Shown one piece after another: positions 5,191 to 21,170 of a stretch of 64,000 nucleotides of DNA. The stretch covers positions 256,001 through 320,000 of the forward strand of contig CBDASK010000003.1 of the NCBI GenBank assembly GCA_965199495.1, written 5' to 3'. The stretch is from Abditibacterium sp. GTDB lineage: Bacteria; Armatimonadota; Abditibacteriia; Abditibacteriales; Abditibacteriaceae. Position 1 is the stretch's first letter. Each line of letters starts with the position of its first letter. Made by a program: the position numbers and the translations under genes. The notes under the pieces are model-generated. The model worked only from the letters and a program-made list of their open reading frames with translations. It had not been told where the DNA came from and ran no database searches.

Positions 5191-7033
5191 CTTCGTCCTC
5201 GCCGTGGCTGCTCAAATGCAACGCCTCTTTAACTTCGGAAACTTTCTCCGTCACCAGCGCCTTGACCGAATTCACGATGACGCCCTTTTCGTTGGGATCG
5301 CCTTTCAATAAGGCTTCGGCGGTGTTGCGCGCGAACTCGAACGAAATATGCGCTGGCAACGGCGGCACATTTTTATCGGTGTGAACATCCAAAAGCGTCA
5401 ATCCATCGTGCGCAAAAGCCGCATCCCACGCTTCGCCGATTTTTTCTGGATCGGTAACTTTGATGCCCTTGAACCCCAACATTTCGGCATAAGCCGCGTA
5501 ATCTATGCTCTCGACGTTTTGCGAACCTTCCCAGCGTGGATTGCCGTCTTCGGTGCGCATTTCCCACGAAACCTGCGTCAAATCGTCGTTGTGCAAAACC
5601 ATCACGACCAACTGTTTGTTGGGCCACAAATGCTGATATTTCTTGATCGTAATCAGTTCGTTCATGCCCAACATTTGAAACGCGCCATCGCCAATTGTGC
5701 AGACGACGGGCTTATCGGGAAAGGCGAACTTAGCAGCCACGGCGTAGGGCATCGCCGCCAACATCGTCGCCAAACGGCCCGACAAATCGCCGCGCATTCC
5801 CCTGCGCAAACGAATATGATGACCATACCAATCGGCGGTCGAACCGGCGTCGCAGGTCACAATCACACCGTCGGGCAAACGCTGGTTGAGTTCGTAAAAC
5901 ACGCGGCGCGGATTGATCGGGTCGGCTTTGTCATAGGCCAAATCGTGCAGCACGCCTTCCCATTCGCGCATCCCTTGGGCGACTTTTTCCTGAAAACTCA
6001 GGTCGTCGGTTGGCGAAATCAGCGGCAAAAGCGCCTGAAGCGTGGATTTGGCGTCGCCCCACAAATTGACTTCCATCGGATAGCGCACGCCCAATTGTCC
6101 GGGCCGCAAATCGATCTGAACACCGCGCGCCTGACCCGTCGGCGGCAAATAGCCCCCGTAGGGATAATTGGAGCCGATCATTACAAAGGTGTCGCAATCC
6201 TGCATCATTTTATAGGAAGGCAAGCTGCCCAGAAGTCCCAATTGTTCGCAATTGAAATCAATATCGCCGGGCACGACATCTTTGCCGCGCAACGCCGTCG
6301 TGATGCCCGCGCCGGTTACGCGCGCGAGTTCCAAAACTTCGTCGGTCGCGCCCAAAGCGCCCGCACCGACCAAAAGCGCGACGCGTTGGCCCGCTTTCAA
6401 AATATCGGCGGCGCGCGTCAGTTCTTCCAACGGCGGCGTAATTTTGATCGAAGTCGGCGCCGACGAACTGCGCGAAACATCAAGTTTTTTGGGCGCGTCC
6501 TCGCTTTTCATCTTTTGCACATCGTGCGGAATAACGATAACGCACGGTTGCCGGTGCGTAAGGGCAATGCGACAGGCGCGGTCAACCACGACTTGCGCTT
6601 GCGCGGGCGTCACGATGGTTTGAACGTAAGCCGCGACATCGGAAAAGGTGCGTTCGAGATTATTTTCCTGTTGATAGGCGCTGCCCAATGTTTCCAACGC
6701 CTGTTGCCCAACGATAGCCACGACGGGCTGGTTGTCCATCTGCGCATCGTAGAGACCGTTGAGCATATGAAAAGCGCCGGGGCTGGAAGTCGCCGTGCAG
6801 ACGCCGATTTTGCCCGTCCATTTGGCGTAGGCTGTCGCCATCAACGCGCAAATTTCTTCGTGCGTCGGGCGGATAAATTTCAGCGGCAAATCAGCGTCAT
6901 CGGCGCGGCCCAAGGCGCCATCGAAACCGCCGATGCCGTCGCCGGGAAAGCCGAAAATGTGGTCAACGCCCCATTCGAGGAGGCGGTCAATTACGAAGTC
7001 GCTGACGGTGTCGCGGGAATGAACAATGCTCAT
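5174..7033 (-). CDS. Thiamine pyrophosphate-requiring enzyme (pyruvate oxidase/PoxB-like)
   Basis: FGFPGDG, HEE, and the GDGAFQM...LHN TPP motif. Start placed at ATG 7033 (MSIVHSRDTVSDF). Confidence 0.9.
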   Translation of the reverse strand: MSIVHSRDTVSDFVIDRLLEWGVDHIFGFPGDGIGGFDGALGRADDADLPLKFIRPTHEEICALMATAYAKWTGKIGVCTATSSPGAFHMLNGLYDAQMDNQPVVAIVGQQALETLGSAYQQENNLERTFSDVAAYVQTIVTPAQAQVVVDRACRIALTHRQPCVIVIPHDVQKMKSEDAPKKLDVSRSSSAPTSIKITPPLEELTRAADILKAGQRVALLVGAGALGATDEVLELARVTGAGITTALRGKDVVPGDIDFNCEQLGLLGSLPSYKMMQDCDTFVMIGSNYPYGGYLPPTGQARGVQIDLRPGQLGVRYPMEVNLWGDAKSTLQALLPLISPTDDLSFQEKVAQGMREWEGVLHDLAYDKADPINPRRVFYELNQRLPDGVIVTCDAGSTADWYGHHIRLRRGMRGDLSGRLATMLAAMPYAVAAKFAFPDKPVVCTIGDGAFQMLGMNELITIKKYQHLWPNKQLVVMVLHNDDLTQVSWEMRTEDGNPRWEGSQNVESIDYAAYAEMLGFKGIKVTDPEKIGEAWDAAFAHDGLTLLDVHTDKNVPPLPAHISFEFARNTAEALLKGDPNEKGVIVNSVKALVTEKVSEVKEALHLSSHGEDEDGDDK

Positions 7034-7227
7034 AAGGGTGCTCGATAAAACAGAGATCAGGTCGTTCCAAACGAAGCCTTTGTCTTGTTCTTTATGTGAG
7101 CAACCCGAATGCCTTATCAAACAATTGGAGGTTTTTCAGGCCGAGTTAATCCAACGGAAACCGTTGTAACATCACTATTTTCGGCGTGATTACGGACAAA
7201 CCAACGCGAAAATAAGAGTTTTAGAAG

Positions 7228-8394
7228 TTAAGCCCCAGCCTTGGCGCTCGCCAATTCCAAAACGGCGCGCGCGATGTCGCGGGCGGCGGCGGGTTTGGCG
7301 AGCTTGCGCGCTTCCTCGCCCATTGCCCGCAAATCTTTGGCGTCGCGTAGCATCTCTTCGACTGTTTTGAGCAAGTTCGGCCCATCGCAATCGGACTGAC
7401 GCAGAATGCGGGCGGCACCCGCGTTGACGACCATTTGCGCGTTTTTGGTTTGCTCGTCGCCGCCCGTCGGCACGAGCGGAACGTAAAGCGCCGCTTTGCC
7501 GACCGCGCACATTTCGGTGACGGTTCCAGCGCCCGCGCGCCCGATGACCAAATCGGCGAGGGCCAAAACATCGCGCAGTTCGTGGCGAATGAATTTGCTC
7601 AACGCGTAGCGCCGTTGCAAGTGTTCCGGCAACGCCAGACGTGCCCGCGTTAAACGGTCGAAATCGTTCTCCTTTTCGGCGGATTGTTCGCCGCACTGGT
7701 GAATCACGCGCGCCTTTTCCAATAATTGCGGCAGACAATCTTCGATGGCGCGATTAATCACGCGCGCGCCCAAACTACCGCCGGTAATATAAATCGCGGA
7801 CAGGTTTTCGTCGGATAAACCGAAGTGTTGTGTCGCCGTGGCTGCATCGCCGCCGAAGATCGAGGCGCGCACGGGATTGCCCGCAACCCACGCGATTTCT
7901 TTGGCGCGCGGCGACAAAGAATGGCGCGCGCCTTCCCACGACAGCGCGATGCGCGTGGCAAAACGCGAATTAATGCGGTTGGCCAGACCGATTTGCACGG
8001 TTTGTTCGTGAATCAAAACTGGAATGTGATTCAAACCCGCCGCGACAACCGGCGGAACGGTGACGTAACCACCAGTCGCCAAAACCACATCAGGCTTGAA
8101 CTTCTTGATTTGATAAAGCGACTGCGCCAAACCGACGGGAATGCGAAATTGGTCGAGCAAGTTTTCCGGCGAAATGTAGCGGCGCAGTTTGCCCGTCGAA
8201 ATCGGCACGAACGGAATGCCCGCCGCCTCGACCAAACCGCGCTCCAAACCTTTTTTGGAGCCGATATATAAAAATTGCGCGTCGGGTTTCATCTGGCGTA
8301 GCGTTTCGATGAGCGCGAGGGCGGGCGAAATGTGGCCCGACGTGCCGCCGCCGGTCACCAAGATTCGCGGGGAATCGGAAGAATTGGTTGCCAT
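7228..8394 (-). CDS. murG: UDP-GlcNAc:lipid I GlcNAc transferase MurG
   Basis: TGGGTSGH, ATGGYV, HEQ, GNPVR, GGSLGA, RAGAGTVTE and EQTKNA motifs. Confidence 0.88.
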   Translation of the reverse strand: MATNSSDSPRILVTGGGTSGHISPALALIETLRQMKPDAQFLYIGSKKGLERGLVEAAGIPFVPISTGKLRRYISPENLLDQFRIPVGLAQSLYQIKKFKPDVVLATGGYVTVPPVVAAGLNHIPVLIHEQTVQIGLANRINSRFATRIALSWEGARHSLSPRAKEIAWVAGNPVRASIFGGDAATATQHFGLSDENLSAIYITGGSLGARVINRAIEDCLPQLLEKARVIHQCGEQSAEKENDFDRLTRARLALPEHLQRRYALSKFIRHELRDVLALADLVIGRAGAGTVTEMCAVGKAALYVPLVPTGGDEQTKNAQMVVNAGAARILRQSDCDGPNLLKTVEEMLRDAKDLRAMGEEARKLAKPAAARDIARAVLELASAKAGA

Positions 8395-8444
8395 ATCTTA
8401 GGCCGCGCAGTTTGGCAGAAATAGCCGATAAAGACACGCAGAAA

Positions 8445-9968
8445 CTATCGGCAACTCTTTTCCATTTCCGCCAACAGAGCCACCGCGTGTCGGCCCGGTT
8501 CGCGATAAATCGAATACAACGGCCCGACGACTTTAGCCGCTTCATCGGCATCGAACCATGCCGCTCCGCCTAATTTCGCCTGCGCTTCGACGTTTAATAA
8601 TACCGGCAATGCGCCCGGCATGATGGCACCGATGCCCGCCAAAATCGGCCCGCCCGCCCGCGCGATTTCGATCAAGCGCTCGACGTTGCGCGCGCCGATG
8701 CGGCCATAGGAAAGCGTCTCGACTTCCAAACCGGGCACGATGACTTTAACCGAATAAATGCCTTTATCGGCGGACGAAAAATCGGCGACCAGCACTTCCA
8801 AATCGTCGGCGCGCAATCTTTCGACGACGAAATTTAATAACGCGGTTTTATCGTCGTTAAGCGATTCAGGTTGCGTCGGCACGTCGGCAAAATCAATCCA
8901 ATTTTCGACGCGATGAACCGGCGCCATATTTTCGCGCACCTGTTCTAAATTTAATTTCGACCAATCGCTCAAACTTTGCAGCGCGCGTTGTTCTTCATCT
9001 TGGGGCGCGAAGTTCTGGCGAAACTCGTCCAAATATCCGTCGGGCGCGATTTGCTCGGCAATCGCCAGTGGCCCATGAAAAAACGCGATGCGCGCGCGCG
9101 CCGCCGCGAACTCCAACAACGCTTTGCGCAGCGCCACCACAGCCACCGGGTGACACGCCTCGCCGCCGCCCAGCGCCATCACGTTCGAGGCGCCATTTTC
9201 CGCATCAATTCTGTCAATGCCCGAAACATAAAATCCGGGAATCCCGCGATCTTGGGAAGCGAATTTCACTACGACATCCACGCCCATTCGCTCGAATTTA
9301 TCCAATAATTCGCGCGCGACCGGATCGTGGATCGTGCTTAAATCAAGCGCGTTTGTCGTGGCCAAAGCGCGAATCGAAAGGCCGTTGCCGTCGCGCTGCA
9401 ACAGTTCGAGCAAACCGTGAACGACCGCCATTTCATAAGTTGTCCCGGCGCCCAAACCGTTAGTGATCGGCGTCACCAAAAATCCGCGCCGCGTCTCGCC
9501 CAGCGCCGGATTGCCGTCGAGCGGTAAATCGCTCCAACCGCACGCGACGAATTCGAGCGGCACCCAGACTTTTTCGCCCGAACCAAAGCGGTTAATTTGC
9601 ACCCAATCCAATTCGATATGTTCGTCGTAAAGACTGCCCGCTTCCAAGCATAAATCGAGCGGATCAATGGCGGCGCACTGGCTCGCCTTCATTTCGGCGA
9701 ACGAGGCGCGCGTTTGCGGCCAATTTTCCAGGGCGTGGTGCGCCCAGAAATCTTCGGTTAATTCGCCGTAAGCGCCGCATCTGGCGCTGGCCGGAGTTTG
9801 GCCATAGCCGACGCCGCCTTTGTGCGGCCCGTTCGCGGGATAAAAAATCGCCGAGTGACAGTGAATGCCTAAGCGGTCGGCGCCCGACAACGCGAACTCG
9901 TTGATTTCGCCGTCGGGCAAAGCCGCGTGATATTTTTCAGTCGCGTTTTGGTAAATGGAATCTTGCAT
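8445..9968 (-). CDS. YcaO-like family protein (paralogue 1)
   Basis: GVGYG..PASARCGAYGELTE, ITNGLGAG...GLLELLQRDG, ALRKALLE and KVIVPGLE motifs. Confidence 0.85.
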   Translation of the reverse strand: MQDSIYQNATEKYHAALPDGEINEFALSGADRLGIHCHSAIFYPANGPHKGGVGYGQTPASARCGAYGELTEDFWAHHALENWPQTRASFAEMKASQCAAIDPLDLCLEAGSLYDEHIELDWVQINRFGSGEKVWVPLEFVACGWSDLPLDGNPALGETRRGFLVTPITNGLGAGTTYEMAVVHGLLELLQRDGNGLSIRALATTNALDLSTIHDPVARELLDKFERMGVDVVVKFASQDRGIPGFYVSGIDRIDAENGASNVMALGGGEACHPVAVVALRKALLEFAAARARIAFFHGPLAIAEQIAPDGYLDEFRQNFAPQDEEQRALQSLSDWSKLNLEQVRENMAPVHRVENWIDFADVPTQPESLNDDKTALLNFVVERLRADDLEVLVADFSSADKGIYSVKVIVPGLEVETLSYGRIGARNVERLIEIARAGGPILAGIGAIMPGALPVLLNVEAQAKLGGAAWFDADEAAKVVGPLYSIYREPGRHAVALLAEMEKSCR

Positions 9969-10020
9969 GATGTTTTAAAATCCCCACGATTAGAATCCCC
10001 GATTAAAATCGGAGCCTAAG

Positions 10021-10105
10021 AACGGCTACGCCGCAACTGTCCGCCTGCGCGGACACACAAAATCTGAGCTTGTCCGCGCAGGCGGACAGTTGCGGCGTAG
10101 CCGTT
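10021..10105. repeat. Perfect 35-bp inverted repeat (REP-like) flanked by two small hairpins
   Basis: AACGGCTACGCCGCAACTGTCCGCCTGCGCGGACA (10021-10055) with its reverse complement at 10071-10105. Small hairpins lie at about 9999-10012 and 10111-10130. Confidence 0.9.
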
Positions 10106-10136
10106 TCCAGACCCACAATTTATTGTGGGTTCGTAA

Positions 10137-10880
10137 TTAAACGCCGACGACAAACCGTTCCGCGAACGGTTCGCGCTCGACGCGCTCGGCTTCGGCGCGA
10201 TGAAATTGCGTCAACTGTGAAGCCACGCCATCGGGGTCGCCGAACTGAAAGCCGATTTGCGACGCATAAGCGCAACATCCAGCGATTTTGAGTTGCAACG
10301 ATTCGTCATCGAAAACGACGAATCCACCGCTCAAATTTTTCGGCAACAACTCCGACGGCGTGGCTGCTGGCTGGCGAATGGCGTAGGGCGTATCGCGATA
10401 CCAAAAGGCTGGCTTATCCCAACCGCGCGCGCGCACAGCGCGAATGACTTGCAAATGGTCAACGTGATTGCCCAAACCCTGCGGCGCAAAAACCGTATCG
10501 GGCGTTTGGATTTCGCCTAATTTCTCGGCGATTTCGCGCCAAATCTCGTCGCCGTCGCGAATGCCGCCAAATAAATCAGGCGCCGATTCGTAACCGCGAT
10601 GCGGCGCCTCGAAGAACGGCCAATGTTCGTAGTTTTCGATGCCGATGATTTCGCAAAATTGGTCGTCTTCGGCACGGCGCAATTTCATGTAATCTATGTC
10701 GGGCGCCAAACCTTTATCCAACTGGCACGCCAAAGCAAAACCCTGCGGATTTTCGACCGAACCGGTAAAAATCGTGATTTGTTGCACATCCCAACCGCCG
10801 CGCAACAAATGGCGCGCAGTCGCGGCGCACGAAAATGCGATGTCATCGAGATGGGGCGAAAGTAAAAGGGCGCGGGGCAT
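10137..10880 (-). CDS. PIG-L/LmbE family de-N-acetylase
   Basis: SPHLDD, RRAED, HVDH and YASQ motifs. Confidence 0.9.
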   Translation of the reverse strand: MPRALLLSPHLDDIAFSCAATARHLLRGGWDVQQITIFTGSVENPQGFALACQLDKGLAPDIDYMKLRRAEDDQFCEIIGIENYEHWPFFEAPHRGYESAPDLFGGIRDGDEIWREIAEKLGEIQTPDTVFAPQGLGNHVDHLQVIRAVRARGWDKPAFWYRDTPYAIRQPAATPSELLPKNLSGGFVVFDDESLQLKIAGCCAYASQIGFQFGDPDGVASQLTQFHRAEAERVEREPFAERFVVGV

Positions 10881-10907
10881 AATAGAAAATGGAAGGCGAA
10901 GATATTT

Positions 10908-12155
10908 CTACAACAAATGCGGCGCCTCGCGATATTTACAAGTCAAATCAATCGGTTCATCCAACTGCCAATCGTTATCAGGCGCCATGCCGATAATTTC
11001 CTCATAAACATCCATAATCTGGCGCGCGACGACGGGCCAACTGTATTTCTCGTGCGCGTCTTGAAACGCGGCTTCGGTTAAGCGCGCGCGCAAATCGTCG
11101 TCGCTTAATATGCGTTCTATCGCGCCAGCCAATGCAACCACGTCGCCGGGCTGCACCAATAAACCGTTGACGTTGTCGGTCAAACAATCCACGACACCGA
11201 CGGCTTCGCACGAAACGACCGGCAAACCGCTCGCCATCGCTTCCAGAATCGTGTTACTGAATCCTTCGGCGTAAGTCGGCGACAAAAACACGTCGCCGCG
11301 CCGGTAAATCGCGGGCACATCGGCGTATTCGACGTAACCCAAAACTTGAACCGCATCGCCCAAATCCAATTCGGCAATGCGCTCGTTGACCGCATCGAAA
11401 TCGGGGCCGATACCCGAATAAACGATTTTGACGTTACGCCAGCGCGGGTTCTGGCGCAAAATCACAAACGCATCCAATAAATCTAACGCGCCTTTGCGAC
11501 GATCAACGCGGCCATGATACAGCAAAACCGGCGCATTCGGGTCGCGGAGTTCACCCAGTTTCAAGCCGTCGCGCGGCACGAATCGCGTCGCATCCACGGC
11601 GCCCGGCACGATGGTGAAGCGCGACAACGGCGTGTCGTGGTTTTCCTCGACTTCGCCCGCGAAACTCTGCGAACCGATCAGCAACGCACCCGCGTGATCG
11701 AACACGGTTGTAATCGCTTCTTTGTGCGTGGCGCAGCACAAACCGACCCAATGGCCATCGCCGCCCTGAATCGAAACGACGTTGGGTTTGCCGGTAATTT
11801 TAGACAATTCGAGCGCCGCCAATCCGGTCGGATAACCGTATTGCGCGTGAAACAAATCGAACGGTTTAGTTGCGTGTTCGCGCAACGCGATCTGCACCAT
11901 CGTCTCGATGTCGGCCTCGAAACTGGCGAGCGATTGCTGTTCGCCCAACGCTTCCAGACCGATAACTTTCACGCCTTCGACGGCGGGCGGCGGGCCGCCT
12001 CCGTAAACGCGCGTGCCCGCTTCATCGCCGCGATACTGCGAAATCATCGTGACATCGTGCCCGGCTTTGACTAACTCGCGCAGCAGGTTGATGGCATAAA
12101 CGCTCATGCCGGAAATCGCCGGGAAAAAGCGGCGGGAAATGAAACAAATTTTCAT
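10908..12155 (-). CDS. Glycosyltransferase family 4 (GT-B, retaining)
   Basis: GRVDRRKG and EGFSNTILEAMASGLPVV motifs. Confidence 0.92.
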   Translation of the reverse strand: MKICFISRRFFPAISGMSVYAINLLRELVKAGHDVTMISQYRGDEAGTRVYGGGPPPAVEGVKVIGLEALGEQQSLASFEADIETMVQIALREHATKPFDLFHAQYGYPTGLAALELSKITGKPNVVSIQGGDGHWVGLCCATHKEAITTVFDHAGALLIGSQSFAGEVEENHDTPLSRFTIVPGAVDATRFVPRDGLKLGELRDPNAPVLLYHGRVDRRKGALDLLDAFVILRQNPRWRNVKIVYSGIGPDFDAVNERIAELDLGDAVQVLGYVEYADVPAIYRRGDVFLSPTYAEGFSNTILEAMASGLPVVSCEAVGVVDCLTDNVNGLLVQPGDVVALAGAIERILSDDDLRARLTEAAFQDAHEKYSWPVVARQIMDVYEEIIGMAPDNDWQLDEPIDLTCKYREAPHLL

Positions 12156-12170
12156 AATTGATGATTGGAT

Positions 12171-12297
12171 TTAGCCACAGAGAACGCACAGAGGAACACA
12201 GAAAGAACGAAGAGAAGAGAAGAGAAGAGGGAGTAAAAAAACAATTTTCTCTTCGTTGCCCACTTTCTGTGTTCCTCTGTGTGTCCTCTGTGGCTAA
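12171..12297. repeat. Imperfect 35-bp inverted repeat (CACAGAG-type REP-like) with an internal GAAGA tandem
   Basis: TTAGCCACAGAGAACGCACAGAGGAACACAGAAAG (12171-12205) versus CTTTCTGTGTTCCTCTGTGTGTCCTCTGTGGCTAA (12263-12297). Overlaps the YcaO2 stop codon. Confidence 0.85.
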
Positions 12298-13757
12298 TTT
12301 GCTTCCTCCATGAAGCCCAGAACATGGCGACCCGGTTCGCGATAGAGCGGATACAAATCGCCGATAATCGCGTCCAACTGCGCGCTATCAAACCACGCGC
12401 CGGGAAATCGCGCTTGCGCCTCTTTGGTCAACGCGATTGGGCGCGCCGTGGCTGGTGCGTCGCCAAGGCCGACGAGCGGCGAATCGCGTTCGAGTAAGCG
12501 TTTCAAATTGCGCGCGCCGATGCGCCCGTAAGTCATAGTTTCGACTTCCAAACCCGGCACGACGGCTTTCAAAACGCAAACATCGGCGCCTGGCGGCGTG
12601 AACTGCGCGTAGTAAATTTCTAAATTTTCGGCGTTCAAACGCTGCGTTAAAACTTGGAGGAGTTGCGCATCGTCGCGGATTTGCGTCGTCGGCAATTCGG
12701 AGAATTTGCGCGTTTCGTTCACGGCAAAAATTGGGTCGCGCAACATCTCGAAGAATTGTTGGTGCGTCAAATTCATCCAAGCGCGCATTTCGCTTAAAGC
12801 GCGGTCGTCTTCGCTGCGCATCGTGGCGGGGCGAAACGCGGCCAGATAACCTTCGGGCACGAGCGGACGCACCAAATCGAGCGGCCCGTGATTGAAGGTT
12901 TTGCGCGCGCGCGCCATACAGAATTCGTGGAGCGCCTTGCCCAGCGCGACTTCACGGTCGGGATGAACCGCCTCGCCGCACGCCGAAAGCGCGATTGGCA
13001 ACGGCGCGCGCTGCAAATCGCGGTCGTAGCCGACGACGTAAAGGTTGACCATGCCGAAATCGAGCGCGGCGATTTTGACTGTAACTTCGATGCCCTGCTC
13101 GTCCAGATTCCTGAGCAGAGCGCGCGTTTGCGGGTCGCGCACTTCGTCTAATTCGACGCGCACGCCGCGATCCAAGGCGCGATAACTCACGCTGTTGCCA
13201 TCGCGTTGCAACTGTTCCAAAACGCCGTGCGCGAGGGCGCGCTCGAACGTCGGCCCGGCGCCCAAACCGTTGGTAATCGGCACGCCGACAAAACTCGATG
13301 GATCGGCGCCTGCTTCAATATCGGCGTAGCGCGGCGCGACGAATTCAATCGGACACCACGTTTTTTCGCCATCGGGATGGCGCGCGATTTCGACCCATCC
13401 GAGCGGCATCGCGGGCGTGTAAATCGTGCCGACTTGCAAGTTCAGCGAAACCGGATCGAGCGCGTTTTCGCCGCGCTGGTTCAGTTCGTCGAACGAAGCG
13501 CGGATTCGCGGCATTTGCTTGAGCGCATCGCGCGCGTGAAACCATTCGATGGCCTCGCCCCACGCCGAAGTTTGGGCGCGCTCCAAAGTCGGGCCGTAGC
13601 CAAAACCATCGTTAAGCGCGCCGTCTTGCGTCAACAAAATGACGCTCCAAAGCGGCGCGCTTAAACGGTCAATGGCGCCAAAAGGAAACTCGAAAACCGT
13701 GGCGCTGCGAAGAGCCACGCCGGGCGATTTGCGGTAGAGGTTGAGTGGCAAATTCAT
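12294..13757 (-). CDS. YcaO-like family protein (paralogue 2)
   Basis: GFGYG..LERAQTSAWGEAIE, ITNGLGAG...GVLEQLQRDG and KAVVPGLEVET motifs. ATG 13757 overlaps the upstream stop (ATGA). Confidence 0.85.
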   Translation of the reverse strand: MNLPLNLYRKSPGVALRSATVFEFPFGAIDRLSAPLWSVILLTQDGALNDGFGYGPTLERAQTSAWGEAIEWFHARDALKQMPRIRASFDELNQRGENALDPVSLNLQVGTIYTPAMPLGWVEIARHPDGEKTWCPIEFVAPRYADIEAGADPSSFVGVPITNGLGAGPTFERALAHGVLEQLQRDGNSVSYRALDRGVRVELDEVRDPQTRALLRNLDEQGIEVTVKIAALDFGMVNLYVVGYDRDLQRAPLPIALSACGEAVHPDREVALGKALHEFCMARARKTFNHGPLDLVRPLVPEGYLAAFRPATMRSEDDRALSEMRAWMNLTHQQFFEMLRDPIFAVNETRKFSELPTTQIRDDAQLLQVLTQRLNAENLEIYYAQFTPPGADVCVLKAVVPGLEVETMTYGRIGARNLKRLLERDSPLVGLGDAPATARPIALTKEAQARFPGAWFDSAQLDAIIGDLYPLYREPGRHVLGFMEEAN

Positions 13758-14569
13758 AGACAAATCTCCATTGGCCCGAAAAACGGCGCGCCATTGAGTT
13801 GCGCCTCGAACAATTGCAACGCCGCCGCGCGCGCATGGGCGGGAGCGCGCTCGAACGTGGTGTAAACGTGATCGAATTCGAGCGCGCGCACCACATCGCG
13901 GTAACGGCGCACCTCGGCGTGGCTCATCGGAACTCGGCGGTTAAACGCTTTGTGCGTCGAAATGCCGATGGTTTTGTCGCCGTCGAAATGAAACTTGAGC
14001 ATATCGCCCGCGAACAGAATTTTTTGCTCGCCAAACAAATGCAAAACGCTGTGCCCGGCGAAATGTCCCGCCGTGTGAACCAAACGCGCGCCGGGCGCGA
14101 AACCGACTTGTTCGTCGAACGGAAAATCGGTATGGAGCGTTTGCGTCCAACCCAAATCTTCGACTTGCACTAAAATCTGCGGCGCGAAACGTTGCTGCAA
14201 TTGCCACGCGGCGCCAAACGCGTGCGGATGCGAAAAACTGAGGTGCGCGATGCCGCCGCGCGACTCGATAAAATCGAGCGCGTCGGCATCGTAGAATCCG
14301 CAACTCTCGAAGAAAATGTTGCCCGTCGCGCGCGGAATTAAATAACCGCTCGGCCCGATGCCCAACTTCGGCTCGGTCGAGAAAGTGATAACGCCCAGTT
14401 CGTCTTCGTGCCAGCGCGTTTGATAGCGCGCGGCGACTTCGTTAAACGTTAAAAATTCCCATCCATCTTCGGGTGGCGTATGCCGAAAATCGAGGCAAAT
14501 TGGACAACTTGCGGGCGTCGCGAAATGGAGTTGCCAGAAGCCACAATTGGTGCAAAGATAATGGTTCAC
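13754..14569 (-). CDS. MBL-fold metallo-hydrolase with N-terminal CxxC...CxxC
   Basis: CTNCG...CPIC, SHPH, GHFAGH and FAGD motifs. GTG 14569 follows a GAGGA RBS and overlaps the upstream stop. Confidence 0.82.
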   Translation of the reverse strand: MNHYLCTNCGFWQLHFATPASCPICLDFRHTPPEDGWEFLTFNEVAARYQTRWHEDELGVITFSTEPKLGIGPSGYLIPRATGNIFFESCGFYDADALDFIESRGGIAHLSFSHPHAFGAAWQLQQRFAPQILVQVEDLGWTQTLHTDFPFDEQVGFAPGARLVHTAGHFAGHSVLHLFGEQKILFAGDMLKFHFDGDKTIGISTHKAFNRRVPMSHAEVRRYRDVVRALEFDHVYTTFERAPAHARAAALQLFEAQLNGAPFFGPMEICL

Positions 14570-15618
14570 GAAGTTGATTCCTCGACCAAAGTGCCGCCCG
14601 CGCAATTGATCGCGGTATGTAAAAGTTGCATGGTGTGCAAGTCGCGCGCGGGCGCGAACGGGAAAGTTTCGCCGCTCAACAGCGCGCGCGAAAACGCCTC
14701 GACGCCATTACGAAACGGCGAAACATCGCGCGTTTTATCCAATTCGATGTTGCGAGTTTCGCCGCTTTGCGCATCCACGATTTCGAGAGTGCCGCCGGGC
14801 GTTTGACCCATCGTGTTGCGCGCGCGCGCCATCGCGCGCGTGCCGATGATTTCGAGCGTGCGGCGCGGGTAATTATCCGGGCAATTGTAAGCGACGTTCA
14901 TCGTCAAAAGCGCGTCGTTTTGGAAGCGGCCAATCAACGTCGCGCCGTCGTCCACGGCATAATCGAAGACGCGGCGTTGCAGCAGACACGCGACTTCGAT
15001 GAGCGGCTGGCCCAGCAACATCTGCGTCAAATCCAGACCGTGCGGCGCCAAATCAATCAGCGCGCCACCGCCCGCGCGCGCGGGGTCAACGCGCCAGTTA
15101 TCGTGCGAACCGTCGTCCGAATCGGGCTTCCAAGTTGGCGGCGTCCAGCACGCATAATGCACACGCGCCAGCGTGATGTCGCCCAACTCTCCGCGTTCAA
15201 TCAACGCGCGCAACTGTTCGTGTGCCGCGTGAAATCGTTGGTCGAATGCCGTCGCGTAAACCACGTTATTTTCGGCGCAAACTTCAGTCATGGCGCGCGC
15301 GTCTTCGAGCGTCGTCGCCATCGGTTTTTCGCACAAAACGTGCTTGCCCGCGCGCGCCGCTCTTTCCGTTATCGCCCGATGCAAATGGTTGGGCGTCGCC
15401 ACATAAACCGCGTCAACATCGCATTGGAGCATCGCATTTAAATCGGTAAACGTCGCAGCATCGGGCGTTTGCGATTTAATGCGCTCCAATGCAGCCACGT
15501 CGGGGTCGCACAGCGCGACGAGCGCGGCGGACGGCGCAACGCGCAACGCGGGCGCGACGTAATCGCGCGCGACCCAGCCGCAACCGACGAGGCCCCAGCG
15601 AATAGTTTGTCTTTTCAT
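14566..15618 (-). CDS. Gfo/Idh/MocA family oxidoreductase (inositol dehydrogenase-like fold)
   Basis: GCGWVA, VATPNHLH, HVLCEKPMA and GGGALIDLAPH motifs. Confidence 0.92.
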   Translation of the reverse strand: MKRQTIRWGLVGCGWVARDYVAPALRVAPSAALVALCDPDVAALERIKSQTPDAATFTDLNAMLQCDVDAVYVATPNHLHRAITERAARAGKHVLCEKPMATTLEDARAMTEVCAENNVVYATAFDQRFHAAHEQLRALIERGELGDITLARVHYACWTPPTWKPDSDDGSHDNWRVDPARAGGGALIDLAPHGLDLTQMLLGQPLIEVACLLQRRVFDYAVDDGATLIGRFQNDALLTMNVAYNCPDNYPRRTLEIIGTRAMARARNTMGQTPGGTLEIVDAQSGETRNIELDKTRDVSPFRNGVEAFSRALLSGETFPFAPARDLHTMQLLHTAINCAGGTLVEESTS

Positions 15619-15672
15619 GTTGATTTTCAAATTCGCGCAGAACGTAGCAACGCAGCAACGCGGATTTGAAAC

Positions 15673-16737
15673 TTATTTGAATCCCGCTTCGCGCATAATT
15701 TCCAACTGAAACTTTTGCACCGGGCCGGGATGAATAATATCCATTTCGTCCAAAGCCACGTCGAGCGTGAAGGCGGCGCTACGCGCGTGCCATTCCATTT
15801 CCAAAACGCGGTCGAGCGAATCGGCGACCTGAAACGATTTCGACGTGGGCGTATCAGCGCGATAAACGTTATCGAGCGCCGCGCGCGCTTTTTCGGCCAA
15901 CTCATCGGGCAACTGTGCCAGCGAACGTTCGCGAAATGTTTGTATGAGCGGCGCGTGATATTCACCCAGCAAAACGTCGCCTGCATCGCCCGCGTCGGGC
16001 AAATAAGCATTGTGAAAATGATGGCTTAGCCCGGTGAGAAAACATTCGCCCGCGTCGGCCTTATATAAAGACGACGCCAAAACGCAATTGACCGCGACGA
16101 TTGAGCAATGTTCGGCGTGATTTTCGGTCGGCTCTAACACGACACGCGCATAGCCGGGCCGTGTCGCCCCGGCCCGTGGCTGCGTTGCCAACCGTTCGAC
16201 GAATTCCGCTTCTTTTACAGATTTATAGCCCTTCACATTGGATTGGCTACACCTGTTCAAGGGCGGGGCTTGCGCCCTCTTCCAATCGTGACTTCTCTTC
16301 GCGCCCCGATTGGAAGAGGGCGCAAGCCCCGCCCTTGGAGCCTTCGCACTGTGAAGGGCTATATCAACAGATGAATTTCCATCATCTTGAATTGTGAGCG
16401 AATCGGACGAGAGTTGGGCGCGCAGTTTTCGGGCGAATTCGTCGGGCAAAACGTTCGCGCTGGCATCGAACGCGCGTTGCAGAATTTGCAGACGCGCGTC
16501 GGCTGCGATGTCGCCATCGTCCAAAACGTGCGCGTCAATGCCCGCCAACTTCGCCGCGACGACGGCGTTGGCCGTTTCGCTCAAAGCGACAATTTCGAGC
16601 GATTCGCCCGCGACTAAACGCGCCCAACTGCAACGAAACAAACGCTCCGCGATGGAGCCGTCAAGACCAGCCACGCGCAGGCGCTTGAGATCGTTGAGTT
16701 CGCGAAACAAAGGCAATAGCGAGGAAACGGAAGCCAT
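15673..16737 (-). CDS. HD-domain-like protein carrying an in-frame 46-aa palindromic insertion
   Basis: ELNDLKR, ENHAEH, SHHFHNAYLPD and ADSLD resemble YfbR-type HD motifs. The ORF stays open across the element at 16224-16363. Confidence 0.7.
   Translation of the reverse strand: MASVSSLLPLFRELNDLKRLRVAGLDGSIAERLFRCSWARLVAGESLEIVALSETANAVVAAKLAGIDAHVLDDGDIAADARLQILQRAFDASANVLPDEFARKLRAQLSSDSLTIQDDGNSSVDIALHSAKAPRAGLAPSSNRGAKRSHDWKRAQAPPLNRCSQSNVKGYKSVKEAEFVERLATQPRAGATRPGYARVVLEPTENHAEHCSIVAVNCVLASSLYKADAGECFLTGLSHHFHNAYLPDAGDAGDVLLGEYHAPLIQTFRERSLAQLPDELAEKARAALDNVYRADTPTSKSFQVADSLDRVLEMEWHARSAAFTLDVALDEMDIIHPGPVQKFQLEIMREAGFK
16224..16363. mobile_element. MITE-like nested palindromic element inserted in a CDS
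   Basis: Outer inverted repeat TATAGCCCTTCACA (16224-16237) / TGTGAAGGGCTATA (16350-16363). Inner perfect 31-bp inverted repeat at 16258-16288 / 16307-16337. Consistent with a TA target duplication. Confidence 0.8.
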
Positions 16738-17925
16738 TTATGCCTCGACCAACTCGTGCGCGTTGGCGCGCGCTTTCATCTTTTCAATCGCTTGCATCAT
16801 CAACTCTTCGTCCACTTCGTGAACATTGAAACCTTCGCCAATCGAGCGCAACATTTGAATCGTCAGCTCGCCGCCCAAATGTTCGCGAAATTCGCGCAAG
16901 CCGCGAAACACCGAGTCGGGATGATCCAAATCATCGGCGTGATTATCCAATTCGGGCGTGTATAAATCGAAGCCGACGGCTTCGAGCGTTTGCAAAACGC
17001 GTTCGGCGTCTTCGTCGCAAATCCAACCTTGCAACGCCGAATACGTCACATCCAATGCCAGACCAATCGCGACGGCTTCGGCGTGACGCAACCGATAATC
17101 AGTGACTTGTTCCAATTTATGCGCCGACCAATGGCCGAAATCCAAGGGGCGCGAACTGCCCATTTCAAACGGATCGCCACCCTCGCAAATGTGGCGGACG
17201 TGCAATTGCGCGCAACGATGAATCAGTTCGCCCATCGCGCCCATGTCGCGCGCGGCGAGCTTGTCGGCGTTGGCTTCGATGAAATCGAAAAAATCGGCGT
17301 CTTTGATCAAAGCGACTTTAATCGCTTCGGCGATGCCGCCGCGCCATTCGCGGTCGGGCAAAGTTTCCAAAAACTTGAAATCGTTTAACACGGCATAAGC
17401 GGGCGCGAAGGTGCCGATGAAGTTCTTTTTGCCGAAGAAATTAATGCCGTTTTTCACGCCGACGCCCGAATCGTTCTGGCTTAAAGTTGTCGTTGGCACG
17501 CGCAATAAACGGATGCCCCGGTGCGCCGTGGCTGCGGCGTAGCCGACCAAATCGAGAATCGCGCCGCCGCCGATGACGGCGAGGTAAGAATGCCGGTCTA
17601 AACCGGTTTCGTTGACGGCGGTTTGAATTTCCAAAACCAGTTCGGGCCGGTTCTTGATATTTTCGCCGCCTTCCAAAAGCAAAACTTCGCCCACCAATTC
17701 GAGTTCGTTGTGGGCGGCAAAATAAGACTCGATGCGCGTTTTCACGTCGCAAAAATCGTTGACGGATTGGTCAACAACCCACAAAATGCGCGTCGGTTTG
17801 GCGAGCGCATCGTCGCCGCGCACGACTTGAATCAAAAGGGAATTTTCGGGAGCAAACAGGTCGGTAGTGAAATGAACGTCGTAATTAAAAGCGACTTGAA
17901 CGTGTCCTTGAATAGGTTGCAACAT
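16738..17925 (-). CDS. Sugar-phosphate cyclase, 3-dehydroquinate synthase-like (EboD-type)
   Basis: GGGAILD, AATAHRG, PTTTLSQNDSGVGVKNGIN, KVALIKD and GDPFEMGSSRPLDFGHWSAHKLE match the EboD-like subgroup rather than canonical AroB (LNxGHTxGHAxE). Confidence 0.85.
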   Translation of the reverse strand: MLQPIQGHVQVAFNYDVHFTTDLFAPENSLLIQVVRGDDALAKPTRILWVVDQSVNDFCDVKTRIESYFAAHNELELVGEVLLLEGGENIKNRPELVLEIQTAVNETGLDRHSYLAVIGGGAILDLVGYAAATAHRGIRLLRVPTTTLSQNDSGVGVKNGINFFGKKNFIGTFAPAYAVLNDFKFLETLPDREWRGGIAEAIKVALIKDADFFDFIEANADKLAARDMGAMGELIHRCAQLHVRHICEGGDPFEMGSSRPLDFGHWSAHKLEQVTDYRLRHAEAVAIGLALDVTYSALQGWICDEDAERVLQTLEAVGFDLYTPELDNHADDLDHPDSVFRGLREFREHLGGELTIQMLRSIGEGFNVHEVDEELMMQAIEKMKARANAHELVEA

Positions 17926-18149
17926 GAGACTTTTCGCGCCAAGTTTTGCCGTTTGCGGACGACAAGAGTCGGCGGCAAACGAACGATAAATTGGGGTTGG
18001 GCGCGAGCCATTTCATTTAACAAATGGCGTGCCTTTTCCGGCAGAGAATTCCCTTGCTAAGCGGGGAGAAACCCTTGATTTCCAAAACTTTTTGCAATAA
18101 CAGAAAACGTTAAACTCAGCGGCGCTTCGCTTGCGAAGAGAAACTTTCC

Positions 18150-19082
18150 ATGAAAATTTTAGTCACTGGCGGCGCCGGTTTTATTGGCTCCCACCTCTGC
18201 GACGCGTTTGCCCGCGATAACCACGTAGTCGCGGCTTTGGACAACCTATCGAGCGGCGAAAATCTGGCGCCGCAAACCCGATTATTTCAAATTGATATTC
18301 GCGACGCCGACGCGGTCGCGCGCGCGATGCGCGAGTTCGCGCCCGATTGCGTGGTTCACTGCGCGGCGCAAATGGATGTGCGAACCTCGGTCGCCGACCC
18401 GGCGTTCGATGCGAGCGTAAATATCGTCGGCGGCTTGAACGTGTTGGGGGCGGCGCAAAGCGCGGGCGCGACGCGGTTCATTTTTGCCTCGACGGGCGGC
18501 GCGATTTATGGCGAACCCGCGCAGATGCCGGTGCCCGAAAGCGCGCCCAAAAATCCCGAATCGCCTTATGGTTTGAGCAAAGCGAGCTTCGAGAATTATC
18601 TCGCGCTGACGAGCAAACGCGGCGAGATCGTGCCGGTTGTTTTGCGCTACTCCAACGTTTATGGCCCGCGTCAGGGCGTGGGCGGCGAGGCGGGCGTCGT
18701 CGCGGTTTTCGCCCAACGATTGTTGAACGGCCAAACCTGCACGATTTTCGGCGATGGCACGTCAGCCCGCGATTACGTTTATGTCGGCGATGTCGTCGCT
18801 GCCAATGTCGCCGCTTTGACGCGCGGCGATAATCAGCAAATCAACATCGGCACGGGCGAATTGACAACTATCGAAGAAGTTTTCGCCCAAGTGCGCGCCG
18901 CCGTGGCTGATGTCACGGGCCACGCCGTCGAAAGCGCGCCGGAATATGCGCCGCTTCGTGCGGGCGAAGTCGAAAAAATCAGTCTTGATGCCAGTCGCGC
19001 GCGCGAAGTTTTGGGTTGGACGCCGCAAATGAAGTTCGCCGACGGCGTGCGCAACGCGGTGGATTGGTTGGCGAAACATTAA
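18150..19082 (+). CDS. NAD-dependent epimerase/dehydratase (UDP-glucose 4-epimerase-like)
   Basis: TGGAGFIG, YGLSK, RYSNVYGPRQ and RDYVYV motifs. Confidence 0.9.
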   Translation: MKILVTGGAGFIGSHLCDAFARDNHVVAALDNLSSGENLAPQTRLFQIDIRDADAVARAMREFAPDCVVHCAAQMDVRTSVADPAFDASVNIVGGLNVLGAAQSAGATRFIFASTGGAIYGEPAQMPVPESAPKNPESPYGLSKASFENYLALTSKRGEIVPVVLRYSNVYGPRQGVGGEAGVVAVFAQRLLNGQTCTIFGDGTSARDYVYVGDVVAANVAALTRGDNQQINIGTGELTTIEEVFAQVRAAVADVTGHAVESAPEYAPLRAGEVEKISLDASRAREVLGWTPQMKFADGVRNAVDWLAKH

Positions 19083-19092
19083 TGGTGATTAG

Positions 19093-19124
19093 TTGATTTT
19101 TATAACGCTCTGCATTATAAAAAT
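19093..19124 (+). promoter_or_regulatory. Putative sigma70 promoter overlapped by a palindromic operator, upstream of the TA pair
   Basis: TTGATT (19093) - 17 nt - TATAAA (19116). Inverted repeat ATTTTTATAA-N9-TTATAAAAAT at 19096-19124. Confidence 0.6.
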
Positions 19125-19148
19125 TGGAGCGTAGACGGGAGGTTAAAC

Positions 19149-19535
19149 GTGAAAATTTACAAGAACAAGCTCTTTGCGACTTTCGCTCGCAAACAAAACA
19201 TCAGCGACGCCGATTTGTGCGACGCCATCGAGCGCGCGGAAAGCGGGTTAATCGATGCTGATATGGGCGGAGGCGTGATTAAACAGCGCATCGCGCGACC
19301 GAACGAAGGCAGATCGGGCGGTTTTCGCACCATCGTTTTCTTTCGCGTGGCAGAGCGCGCGTTTTTCGTTTTTGGCTTTGCCAAAAATCAGCGAGATAAC
19401 ATCAGTCCAAAGGATTTGAAGATATTCAAAGATGCGGCTCAGGTGACTTTGAATTTTACGTCTGAAGAGATAGAAGCGGCTATCGAAGCCGCAAAACTTA
19501 TCGAGGTGAATTGCGATGAAGACCTACAAAAGTGA
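19149..19535 (+). CDS. Type II toxin, RelE/ParE superfamily (DUF1044-like)
   Basis: ADMGGGVIKQRIAR..EGRSGGFRTI...FVFGFAKN motifs. Confidence 0.88.
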   Translation: MKIYKNKLFATFARKQNISDADLCDAIERAESGLIDADMGGGVIKQRIARPNEGRSGGFRTIVFFRVAERAFFVFGFAKNQRDNISPKDLKIFKDAAQVTLNFTSEEIEAAIEAAKLIEVNCDEDLQK

Positions 19536-19830
19536 AATCGCCGGGGCGATGCACGAAATGATGTCCGACTTTCACGAAATCGGCATTGTGTCAAAAAGCA
19601 CGATGCGCGAGTTCGATGAGTTGTGTCTGACGACCATCGAAAAGTTGGCGCCCGACGAAATCAAAGCGGTGCGCGAGCAAACGGCGGTCAGCCAGACCGT
19701 TTTCGCGCGCTATCTGGGCGTGACGCCCGGTTTGGTTTCGCAGTGGGAGCGCGGCGAGCGCAAGCCGAGCGGCCCGGCGCTCAAATTGTTGAATCTGGTC
19801 AAAAACAAAGGTTTAGATTGCATCGCGTGA
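19516..19830 (+). CDS. HTH (Xre) antitoxin, HigA-like
   Basis: TMREFDELC, SQTVFARYLGV...VSQWERGERKPSG; overlaps the toxin gene. Confidence 0.88.
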   Translation: MKTYKSEIAGAMHEMMSDFHEIGIVSKSTMREFDELCLTTIEKLAPDEIKAVREQTAVSQTVFARYLGVTPGLVSQWERGERKPSGPALKLLNLVKNKGLDCIA

Positions 19831-19839
19831 ATCCAAACC

Positions 19840-19874
19840 AAAGCGGCGAACCTTCAGGCGTTCGCCGCTTTTTT
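19840..19874 (+). terminator. Rho-independent terminator
   Basis: AAAGCGGCGAAC-loop-GTTCGCCGCTTTTTT. Confidence 0.7.
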
Positions 19875-21170
19875 GTGGGAGGCTCGTTTGTCCAACGCGT
19901 CCGAAATCGGTTCGGAGAAACGCGTGAGAACCGGGCCGACGACCGCGAGAATTAAGACGTAAGCCGCCGCAATCGGCGCCAGTTGCGGCTCGGCGCTCGC
20001 GCCCAATCCGGCGATAATGATGGAAAACTCGCCGCGCGAAACCAAAGTCAAGCCCGCGCGCAAGCAGCCACGGGCGCCGATGCCTTCCCATTTGGCGACT
20101 TTCCAGCCGGTAAATATTTTGGTCGAAGCCGTAAAAATCGCTAATCCAATCGCGACGGGCAATGCGGGCGGCAAAGTGCCGGGATCGATTTGCAAACCGA
20201 CGAACAGGAAAAAGGTCGCCGCGAACAAATCGCGGAGCGGCGATAATAATTCGCGCGCTTTGTCGGCGACGCTGCCCGACAAAGCGAGGCCAACCAGAAA
20301 TGCGCCGACGCCCGCCGAAACTTGCAGCATTTGCGAGACGCCCGCGACCACCAAAATCAAGCCGAACACCGACAGCAAAACGACTTCGTCCGAGGCGTGC
20401 GAGACCGCTTTGGACAAGCGTTCGCCGAACTTGAGCGCCAATAGCAACACAACTGAAACCGTGACGAGGGCGATGCCGATGGAAATCGAGCCGCGCAAAA
20501 AGCCCTGGCCCAATAACAAAACCGCGACGAGCGGCAGATAGACCGCCATCGCCAAATCTTCCAAAACCAAAAGCGTTAGAATCGGCGGCGTTTCGCGGTT
20601 GCCGACGCGGTTGAGGTCGCCCAGAACTTTGGCGATAATCGAAGACGACGAAATATAAGTCACGCCACCGAGCAAAAGCGCGCCGACGAACGACCAACCG
20701 AGCAAAAATCCCAGCGCCATTCCGGGCAATAAATTGAGCGCCAAATCCAAAGCGCCGCCGCGCGCGCCGCGTTTTAATCCGTTGGATAATTCTTCGCCGG
20801 TATATTCGAGGCCGAGCATGAAGAGCAGCAAAACCACGCCGATTTCGGCGCCGGTTTCGATGAACCCGGCGCTGACCGGCAGTTTGACGAATCCGCCGAC
20901 GCCCAAAAATAAGCCCGCCAATAAATAAAGTGGAATTGGCGTGAGGCCGACGCGCGAGGCCAAGCGCGCCAGAAACGCGAGTGCGATGATGACGATGCCC
21001 AGTTCGACAAACAGTTCGGCGGTGTGCGCCAGCGTTTCGGCGGCGGGCGAGGGCGCGCCACCAACGGGCGCGTTGGCCACGCCGACGGCATTAGCCACGG
21101 CGTCGGCCACCGATTCGGGCGGAGCCGCGTTTTCCAGAACGCCGTCATCGGCGATGAATTGAAGCGGCAT
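19854..21170 (-). CDS. Cation:proton antiporter, CPA2 family (KhtU/YhaU-like)
   Basis: LLFMLGLEY, ISSSSIIAKVL, LVLEDL, PLRDLF and RGEFSI motifs. Confidence 0.9.
   Translation of the reverse strand: MPLQFIADDGVLENAAPPESVADAVANAVGVANAPVGGAPSPAAETLAHTAELFVELGIVIIALAFLARLASRVGLTPIPLYLLAGLFLGVGGFVKLPVSAGFIETGAEIGVVLLLFMLGLEYTGEELSNGLKRGARGGALDLALNLLPGMALGFLLGWSFVGALLLGGVTYISSSSIIAKVLGDLNRVGNRETPPILTLLVLEDLAMAVYLPLVAVLLLGQGFLRGSISIGIALVTVSVVLLLALKFGERLSKAVSHASDEVVLLSVFGLILVVAGVSQMLQVSAGVGAFLVGLALSGSVADKARELLSPLRDLFAATFFLFVGLQIDPGTLPPALPVAIGLAIFTASTKIFTGWKVAKWEGIGARGCLRAGLTLVSRGEFSIIIAGLGASAEPQLAPIAAAYVLILAVVGPVLTRFSEPISDALDKRASHKKAANA

Follow-up and report, generated by a model that had tools for sequence, protein, structure and literature searches.

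A conserved YcaO operon as a candidate pathway to an amino-sugar/cyclitol small molecule

What kind of product is made by an operon that places two YcaO enzymes, members of a family known for its work on peptides, among enzymes of sugar and cyclitol metabolism? The question is raised by eight co-directional genes on the minus strand (positions 8445-17925) of a 64,000-nucleotide stretch of the Abditibacterium sp. genome (NCBI GenBank assembly GCA_965199495.1, contig CBDASK010000003.1, positions 256,001 to 320,000), the whole of which is referred to here as the window. It is very probable that this operon builds an amino-sugar/cyclitol small molecule, and probable that YcaO acts on that non-peptide compound; with distinctly less assurance, we lean towards a UV or related stress protectant as the product. 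The reading that we narrowly prefer joins these elements: an amino-sugar/cyclitol protectant against UV light or other stress, in whose synthesis YcaO would form C=N bonds as a ligase on a substrate that is not a peptide. No description of the operon was found in literature lying mostly outside subscription journals and supplements, nor is there one in the accessible portions of PMC8561711, PMC8776678 and the reference list of PMC10875822.

The gene order, family labels and shared orientation proposed in a sequence-only reading of this DNA are borne out by Pfam and profile matches. The operon opens with an EboD-type sugar-phosphate cyclase (16738-17925; DHQ_synthase/PRK06203, 566 bits against a cut-off of 333), which is followed by an HD-fold protein (YfbR/HDDC2/OxsA type; 15673-16737) whose metal site is altered, a Gfo/Idh/MocA NAD(P) oxidoreductase (14566-15618; Pfam), and a metallo-beta-lactamase (MBL)-fold protein with an N-terminal CxxC..CxxC and an incomplete HxHxDH motif (13754-14569). 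The HD and MBL assignments combine weak matches below the cut-off (HD_3 of Pfam and Lactamase_B, respectively) with profile and fold comparison. Next come YcaO2, which occupies the core position of the operon (12294-13757; PF02624, E 9.5e-49), a GT4 glycosyltransferase (10908-12155; Pfam), a PIG-L de-N-acetylase (10137-10880; Pfam), and YcaO1, a second YcaO of the same subfamily (8445-9968; PF02624, E 2.1e-54). The junctions described earlier as overlapping or abutting are indeed so: 0 bp between the cyclase and HD genes, and -4 bp at both Gfo-MBL and MBL-YcaO2, where MBL starts with GTG at 14569 and YcaO2 with ATG at 13757. The remaining spacings are 54 bp (HD-Gfo), 138 bp (YcaO2-GT4), 27 bp (GT4-PIG-L) and 168 bp (PIG-L-YcaO1).

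This gene set recurs far beyond Abditibacterium. A scan of GTDB genomes confirmed 324 stretches, the best 80 of which gave 72 loci; a metagenome scan confirmed 316, the best 80 of which gave 77; and two annotated plasmid loci brought the collection to 151 loci, many of them close kin, so that counts over this collection are not independent. HD, Gfo, YcaO, GT4 and PIG-L stand together in 86 of the 151, with synteny conserved across phyla, as the sequence-only reading had asked of a genuine pathway; 18 loci carry YcaO alone, and the remainder hold a partial set, mostly at contig ends. By record title, the loci belong to eight phyla (Armatimonadota, Verrucomicrobiota, Actinomycetota, Acidobacteriota, Myxococcota, Bacteroidota, Pseudomonadota, Planctomycetota). 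Three layouts recur: that of the window (cyclase-HD-Gfo-MBL-YcaO-GT4-PIG-L-YcaO); the commonest, which begins with an inositol-phosphate synthase (MIPS) and reads MIPS-HD-methyltransferase-Gfo-(MBL)-YcaO-TIM barrel-GT4-PIG-L; and a third that reads cyclase-HD-methyltransferase-Gfo-MBL-YcaO-GT4-PIG-L. The nearest named relative of the window locus, another Abditibacterium assembly, has the same eight genes at 65-86% identity, and the eight-gene order is not a product of chance because the same order recurs across phyla. In one locus (L190), the TIM-barrel gene is not followed by GT4 and PIG-L, and a close relative of the window operon (L120, 425-5358) has a shortened HD gene and lacks Gfo, MBL and YcaO2, through either deletion or misassembly.

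The twin YcaO genes, taken in the sequence-only reading as the core of the system, proved to be a lineage variant; most operons combine a single YcaO with a methyltransferase, and an O-methyltransferase gene is found in 71 of the 151 loci. Only in L127 do a second YcaO and a methyltransferase occur together, but this does not establish that the one takes the place of the other, since the operons with two YcaOs all belong to a single lineage and three Bacteroidota loci lack both. L127 (12049-15183) has its second YcaO (37%) and an adjoining acyltransferase gene next to an operon of the methyltransferase type, with this YcaO encoded on the other strand. Carriers of the operon are few overall: 2 of 151 genomes in the phylum of the window and 3 of 401 sampled from Alphaproteobacteria. 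It is missing from five of six other genomes of the window's own genus, and it is common in a Roseomonas-type genus (17 of 25 genomes).

The entry step takes one of two forms. The cyclase is encoded in 28 of the 151 loci and MIPS in 59, with no locus holding both, which upholds the earlier suggestion that the two are interchangeable; the TIM-barrel gene accompanies MIPS in 59 of 59 loci and the cyclase in none of 28. Aligned over about 95% of its length, the window cyclase shares 49-55% identity with EboD of annotated ebo operons, and it is 33% identical to sedoheptulose-7-phosphate cyclases; it groups with the EboD clade, apart from AroB and the sedoheptulose-7-phosphate cyclases, and a separate AroB-like gene (36%) lies elsewhere in the genome. 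According to the accessible part of a review, EboD converts mannose-6-phosphate to the deoxy-inosose DEI, and the replacement of EboD by an inositol-phosphate synthase route is likewise described, in the text available, for the ebo pathway. The operon thus shares with ebo/thallusin (EboD, Ino1-Ino2/3) both the EboD-clade cyclase and its replacement by inositol-phosphate synthase plus isomerase/dehydratase genes. The gene maps, which do not extend genome-wide, show no EboA, B, C, E or F beside the cyclase, and where ebo/thallusin has a prenyltransferase route the operon has GT4, PIG-L, YcaO, HD and MBL instead.

Both window YcaOs belong to the YcaO superfamily (PF02624, 185 and 167 bits against a cut-off of 25.7), are 40% identical to each other and have no further YcaO match beside them in the genome. 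In a FastTree phylogeny with midpoint root, YcaO1 clusters with solo Chloroflexota YcaOs and not with YcaO2, and the notion that it is a recent duplicate was dropped because the two sit on different branches. The YcaO2 model (pLDDT 95.8) matches best the fold of the Methanocaldococcus jannaschii YcaO 6PEU (Foldseek E 1.3e-21). The operon enzymes have the fold and most of the ATP motif in common with characterized YcaOs (the thioamide-forming MjYcaO/MkYcaO, the azoline-forming TruD/LynD/McbD, and ItfB, which forms an amidine). They depart from them in two ATP motifs: YcaO2 reads ExxQRD and ExxEW instead of ExxERD and ExxER (E..ERD and EAIER/EAVER in solved YcaOs). Throughout the subfamily, all but one of 93 proteins from the loci and all but one of 240 from the database have the Gln of ExxQRD, no matched member has Arg after ExxE, and the other ATP-motif residues are kept. 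In YcaOs, the residues of these motifs have a role in Mg/ATP binding. An invariant C-terminal YxxYRE sets the group apart further, while the invariance of the word PITNG partly reflects the scan pattern. On these motifs, the operon YcaOs form a distinct subfamily of predicted enzymes. A search of the ESM Atlas yielded nothing beyond YcaO and HD clusters, none of them with a functional name.

Are these enzymes part of a pathway to peptides that are made on the ribosome and modified after translation (RiPPs)? Both score far below the azoline-YcaO model TIGR03604 (102 and 95 bits against a cut-off of 219). Azoline YcaOs end in a C-terminal PxP, and this end is missing in 238 of 240 subfamily proteins. 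TfuA (PF07812) was not found in the 95% complete genome and is not among the conserved neighbours, and the conserved neighbour families include no E1 partner, azoline dehydrogenase or protease. Clustering of 2348 small open reading frames (ORFs), taken from within 1.5 kb or in the gaps of 75 loci, yielded no conserved small ORF; the largest clusters span nine loci and are shadows of flanking genes. The absence of linked RiPP parts noted from the sequence of this one locus extends to its relatives, with the proviso that an unlinked precursor would escape a search that covers linked ORFs.

The loci that carry YcaO alone point in the same direction. Twelve of the 18 have sugar ABC transporter genes, in one case along with IolB/KduI. 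Of the other six, one has a BadF/BadG sugar-kinase-type gene and a GalE-like gene, one has no sugar link, and four are short or end within the gene. The solo loci fall into about six arrangements. Examples beside sugar genes are L046, L056, L099, L107, L134, L163, L164 and L171. One solo locus, L047, comes from the unpublished genome G014; three unpublished genomes have one YcaO each and no HD match. We regard the solo YcaOs beside sugar transporters as the best independent sign that this YcaO family handles a sugar-like small molecule, and together with the gene content of the operon they support the earlier view that the context is that of a small molecule, not a peptide. Solo loci are possibly an uptake or breakdown module for the operon product.

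Gfo, GT4 and PIG-L keep conserved motifs. In Gfo, EKP and D193-x3-H197 are conserved, and the nearest solved protein is 1,5-anhydro-D-fructose reductase (E 5e-39). GT4 retains E297-x7-E305 and has a weak, sub-cut-off likeness to MshA and BshA; judged from its sequence, it is predicted to transfer an N-acetylhexosamine (HexNAc) to the cyclitol. PIG-L retains PHLDD and HxDH, and its nearest solved relatives are the teicoplanin pseudoaglycone N-acetylglucosamine (GlcNAc) deacetylases, which deacetylate GlcNAc on a small-molecule glycoside. The HD protein reads H239-H240 in place of H-D at its metal site, with H207, H210, N243, D306 and H336 invariant; its model (pLDDT 85) aligns with 4DMB (Z 11.6, root-mean-square deviation 2.6 over 143 residues), and a Foldseek search returned no match at E<0.001. 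The HD family tracks YcaO: the same four plasmid-collection records carry both, it is absent from four of four genomes without this YcaO, and it occurs in 1 of 301 genomes of a Bacteroidota-centred sample.

MBL, proposed earlier as a co-occurring partner, is part of the recurrent layouts and forms a fusion with YcaO in Chthoniobacterales and in a single locus of Bacteroidota (L015, L016, L019-L030, L038), but 18 of the 86 complete operons lack it. The idea that it is dispensable was dropped because orthologues persist elsewhere in the genome in all five Methylobacterium-type genomes tested whose operon lacks it; inspection of the ORFs surrounding these orthologues revealed no shared neighbours. 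HD and MBL are predicted metal enzymes that may remove phosphate, hydrolyse a bond or open a ring.

How could these proteins act together? All of the operon chemistry that follows is inferred. The product would be a soluble small molecule assembled from an amino-hexose and a six-carbon cyclitol. The EboD-type cyclase would, if it acts as its relatives do, form a deoxy-inosose from mannose-6-phosphate, and inositol-phosphate synthase together with a TIM-barrel dehydratase, again judged by their relatives, would reach the same level. Gfo would then alter the redox state of the ring. Since inositol less two hydrogens and water has the formula of DEI less two hydrogens, a single oxidation by Gfo could let the two routes converge on one trihydroxy-cyclohexanedione; the nearest solved Gfo protein is a keto-sugar reductase, so that the reaction may run in either direction. 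Going by their families, GT4 would add HexNAc, and PIG-L would free its 2-amino group, which might close on a neighbouring carbonyl to give a pyrano-oxazine. YcaO would use ATP to O-phosphorylate an amide-like or vinylogous carbonyl, nitrogen would replace oxygen to leave an N-C=C-C=N chromophore, and the enzyme would thus take the role that ATP-grasp ligases have in mycosporine synthesis. Tailoring by the methyltransferase or, in the window operon, by the second YcaO would complete the product.

Such a scheme has much in common with several known pathways. Like the mycosporine pathway (MysA-D), it has a sugar-phosphate cyclase, an O-methyltransferase and, supposing that C=N bonds are what the YcaOs make, one or two enzymes that depend on ATP; in contrast to it, the ring would be a C6 EboD/inositol ring and not that of DDGS, YcaO stands in place of an ATP-grasp enzyme (there is none in the operon maps), and the nitrogen would come from an amino-sugar made by GT4 and PIG-L, not from glycine or serine. 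The opening of 2-deoxystreptamine aminoglycoside synthesis (BtrC/BtrN/BtrM/BtrD) also joins a DHQS-like deoxy-inosose synthase to a dehydrogenase, a GT4 enzyme and a PIG-L deacetylase; here, YcaO, HD and MBL are additional, and the conserved families include no pyridoxal-phosphate (PLP) aminotransferase, resistance or export gene. With mycothiol and bacillithiol, the operon shares GT4, PIG-L and, in its variants, inositol-phosphate synthase. Judged by analogy, it resembles an aminoglycoside or mycothiol start followed by mycosporine-type C=N formation, yet it falls outside each of these systems when membership is assessed.

A possible identity of the product is suggested by the genus Methylobacterium. 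In one Methylobacterium-type genus, 144 of 146 genomes encode this YcaO, against 3 of 301 genomes sampled from its order, all three from the same genus. The YcaO of one member (G563) is 99% identical to that of M. bullatum, and named Methylobacterium and Methylorubrum species fill the list of homologues. The operon order is kept in 10 of 10 Methylobacterium-type regions checked and is complete in nine. Contigs from four RNA-library runs cover 30 of 30 bins of one Methylobacterium-type operon; such contigs cannot show transcription or its level and were not used as evidence. Methylobacterium makes the UVA absorber methylobamine, as stated in the accessible text of PMC9664959 and PMC12573535, and the parts of this compound, as given in the available portion of PMC13567104, are galactopyranose, a pyranooxazine, iminoacetic acid and a linear five-carbon chain. 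The operon hence occurs in a methylobamine-producing genus, and ring closure between the amine of a 2-amino-galactoside and the adjacent carbon of its aglycone would give a pyrano-oxazine such as that of methylobamine; the amino-galactose-type pyrano-oxazine and imine parts of methylobamine (Methylobacterium sp. W-213) fit the GT4/PIG-L/YcaO logic. That the product is methylobamine or a close relative is a tentative proposal that we think more doubtful than the UV-protectant reading itself. Equally tentative is the wider conjecture that the operon is the cluster so far missing for methylobamine-type UV-A sunscreens and constitutes a second bacterial route to mycosporine-like chromophores in at least eight phyla, in which YcaO would work on an amino-sugar/cyclitol as an ATP-dependent C=N ligase, the His-rich HD protein or MBL would open the ring and solo YcaOs would let non-producers take up and break down the product.

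Genes for photolyase, spore-photoproduct lyase (SPL) or UvdE flank 7 of 133 operon loci (0.99 Mb), against at most 0.64 expected (Poisson P 5e-6 for seven, 5e-4 for five independent events); the expectation was derived from 36 carrier genomes (about 209 Mb), in which photolyase domains were matched 61 times and SPL 36 times, with one UvdE assumed for each genome. A microbial rhodopsin gene, another light-related neighbour, lies 2.5 kb from the operon in L014 (17628-18410).

Several points weigh against a UV protectant built by YcaO, and against methylobamine in particular. The UV-gene enrichment was tested post hoc, comes down to some five independent events and may be a trait of stress islands in general; in the window genome itself, the UV-repair genes are more than 800 kb from the operon. 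Genus-wide presence in Methylobacterium has other causes for many genes. The linear five-carbon chain of methylobamine, as described in the available text, is not accounted for by an intact cyclitol and is reachable from a six-carbon ring only after cleavage and carbon loss, steps to which none of the genes is assigned, and no gene link to the compound was found in the literature accessible in part. A GalE-like gene stands beside none of the 10 Methylobacterium-type operons. The HD gene is retained in EboD operons although the product of an EboD-type cyclase carries no phosphate, and the two ATP-motif substitutions could, to judge from the sequences, lower or change YcaO activity.

The same chemistry might also lead to a product unrelated to UV light, such as a compatible solute, a signal or an aminoglycoside-like inhibitor. 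The cyclase, dehydrogenase, GT4 and PIG-L that also open 2-deoxystreptamine synthesis would suit it, as would the patchy range of the operon and the solo YcaOs beside sugar transporters, which suggest uptake of an environmental compound; the lack of aminotransferase, resistance gene and exporter among the conserved families, the near-universal retention in one genus and the UV-repair neighbours tell against it, and we consider it unlikely. A good deal less probable is that YcaO modifies an unlinked peptide or protein, for example by forming an amidine that joins the amino-sugar cyclitol to an amide of the backbone. All characterized YcaOs act on peptides or proteins according to the accessible text of PMC10352776, and RiPP-mining papers (PMC10352776, PMC8120280), as far as available, list YcaO chemistry as peptide-only; the nearest fold, moreover, is that of the protein-thioamidating M. 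jannaschii enzyme, and an unlinked substrate would evade the small-ORF search. Set against this are the absence of a conserved small ORF at the 75 loci and of a protease, E1 partner or TfuA, the movement of the operon between phyla as a closed unit, and the solo copies in sugar-uptake clusters.

An MdoH-like glucosyltransferase gene lies near the operon in 46 of 153 loci (e.g., L129, 14371-16245), often directly downstream and often followed by DUF4864 and beta-helix protein genes, and extra GT4 and GalE-like genes flank some operons. These neighbours would suit an operon that decorates a periplasmic glucan or an envelope glycoconjugate and makes no free metabolite; MdoH is missing, however, in the window and the other loci with two YcaOs, as it is in 10 of 10 Methylobacterium-type regions, and the core has no membrane or export protein, which makes such a function very improbable. 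We give slightly less credence still to a mycothiol- or bacillithiol-like thiol, or a thioamide, in which YcaO would replace the cysteine ligase or thioamidate an N-acyl group. The mycothiol/bacillithiol logic invoked in the sequence-only reading stands insofar as GT4 and PIG-L are present, and MIPS, GT4 and PIG-L amount to an Ino1/MshA/MshB set; the nearest YcaO fold is a thioamide-forming one, and BshC, the bacillithiol cysteine ligase, was not found in the genome (MshC was not searched for). Beyond this, the family models score far below their cut-offs (MshA 89 against 462, BshA 98 against 274, BshB1 16.5 against 182 bits), the EboD-variant operon would give a non-phosphorylated acceptor, there is no TfuA or sulfur-carrier gene, and the operon maps hold no sulfur-delivery gene. 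YcaO enzymes activate an amide oxygen and are not known to ligate carboxylates. Two glutathione-synthetase-like genes, below cut-off, lie in the genome, and the absence of the operon from most other genomes of its genus also argues against a thiol. Among the product classes put forward at the outset, the UV or desiccation protectant is the option now favoured, and the thiol is not.

Further features surround the operon. The two large gaps consist of dispersed palindromic repeats, at 12171-12297 between YcaO2 and GT4 (42 genomic sites) and at 9989-10137 between PIG-L and YcaO1 (12 genomic sites); a third repeat family of the genome (67 sites) lies in frame within the HD gene at 16224-16363 (inverted repeats I3 and I10), where it encodes residues of about 116-167 that are disordered in the model (pLDDT < 50). 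The HD protein is also matched over 55 residues elsewhere in the genome, which suggests more coding insertions. An Rfam scan of window positions 6000-20000 gave no match, and promoter and terminator counts do not exceed those of shuffled sequence. Divergent from the cyclase, on the plus strand, lies a GalE-type UDP-hexose 4-epimerase gene (18150-19082; nearest solved proteins UDP-glucose 4-epimerases, E 1e-78) of uncertain operon membership; its like is found in 25 of the 151 loci, and the enzyme is a possible supplier of a galacto-configured donor. A MurG-like gene (7228-8394; TIGR01133, above cut-off) lies 50 bp downstream of YcaO1, away from a cell-division cluster, and was rejected as an operon member because it is not conserved beside the operon. 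An overlapping pair of small genes at 19149-19830 resembles what we take to be a RelE/helix-turn-helix toxin-antitoxin system. Elsewhere, a gene of the uracil-DNA-glycosylase superfamily lies near 20 loci (among them L053, 13984-14889; L172, 14257-14853; L186-L195), directly downstream in 9 of 10 Methylobacterium-type operons.

If YcaO does act on a sugar-cyclitol, an enzyme family of the peptide backbone would be extended to small-molecule synthesis, and genome-mining tools would be mislabelling such clusters as RiPP-like. The EboD/inositol entry module would gain a second downstream pathway besides thallusin. Because the operon is near-universal in Methylobacterium, a main leaf-surface genus and one with genetic tools, it may bear on the origin of an orphan UV-A absorber.

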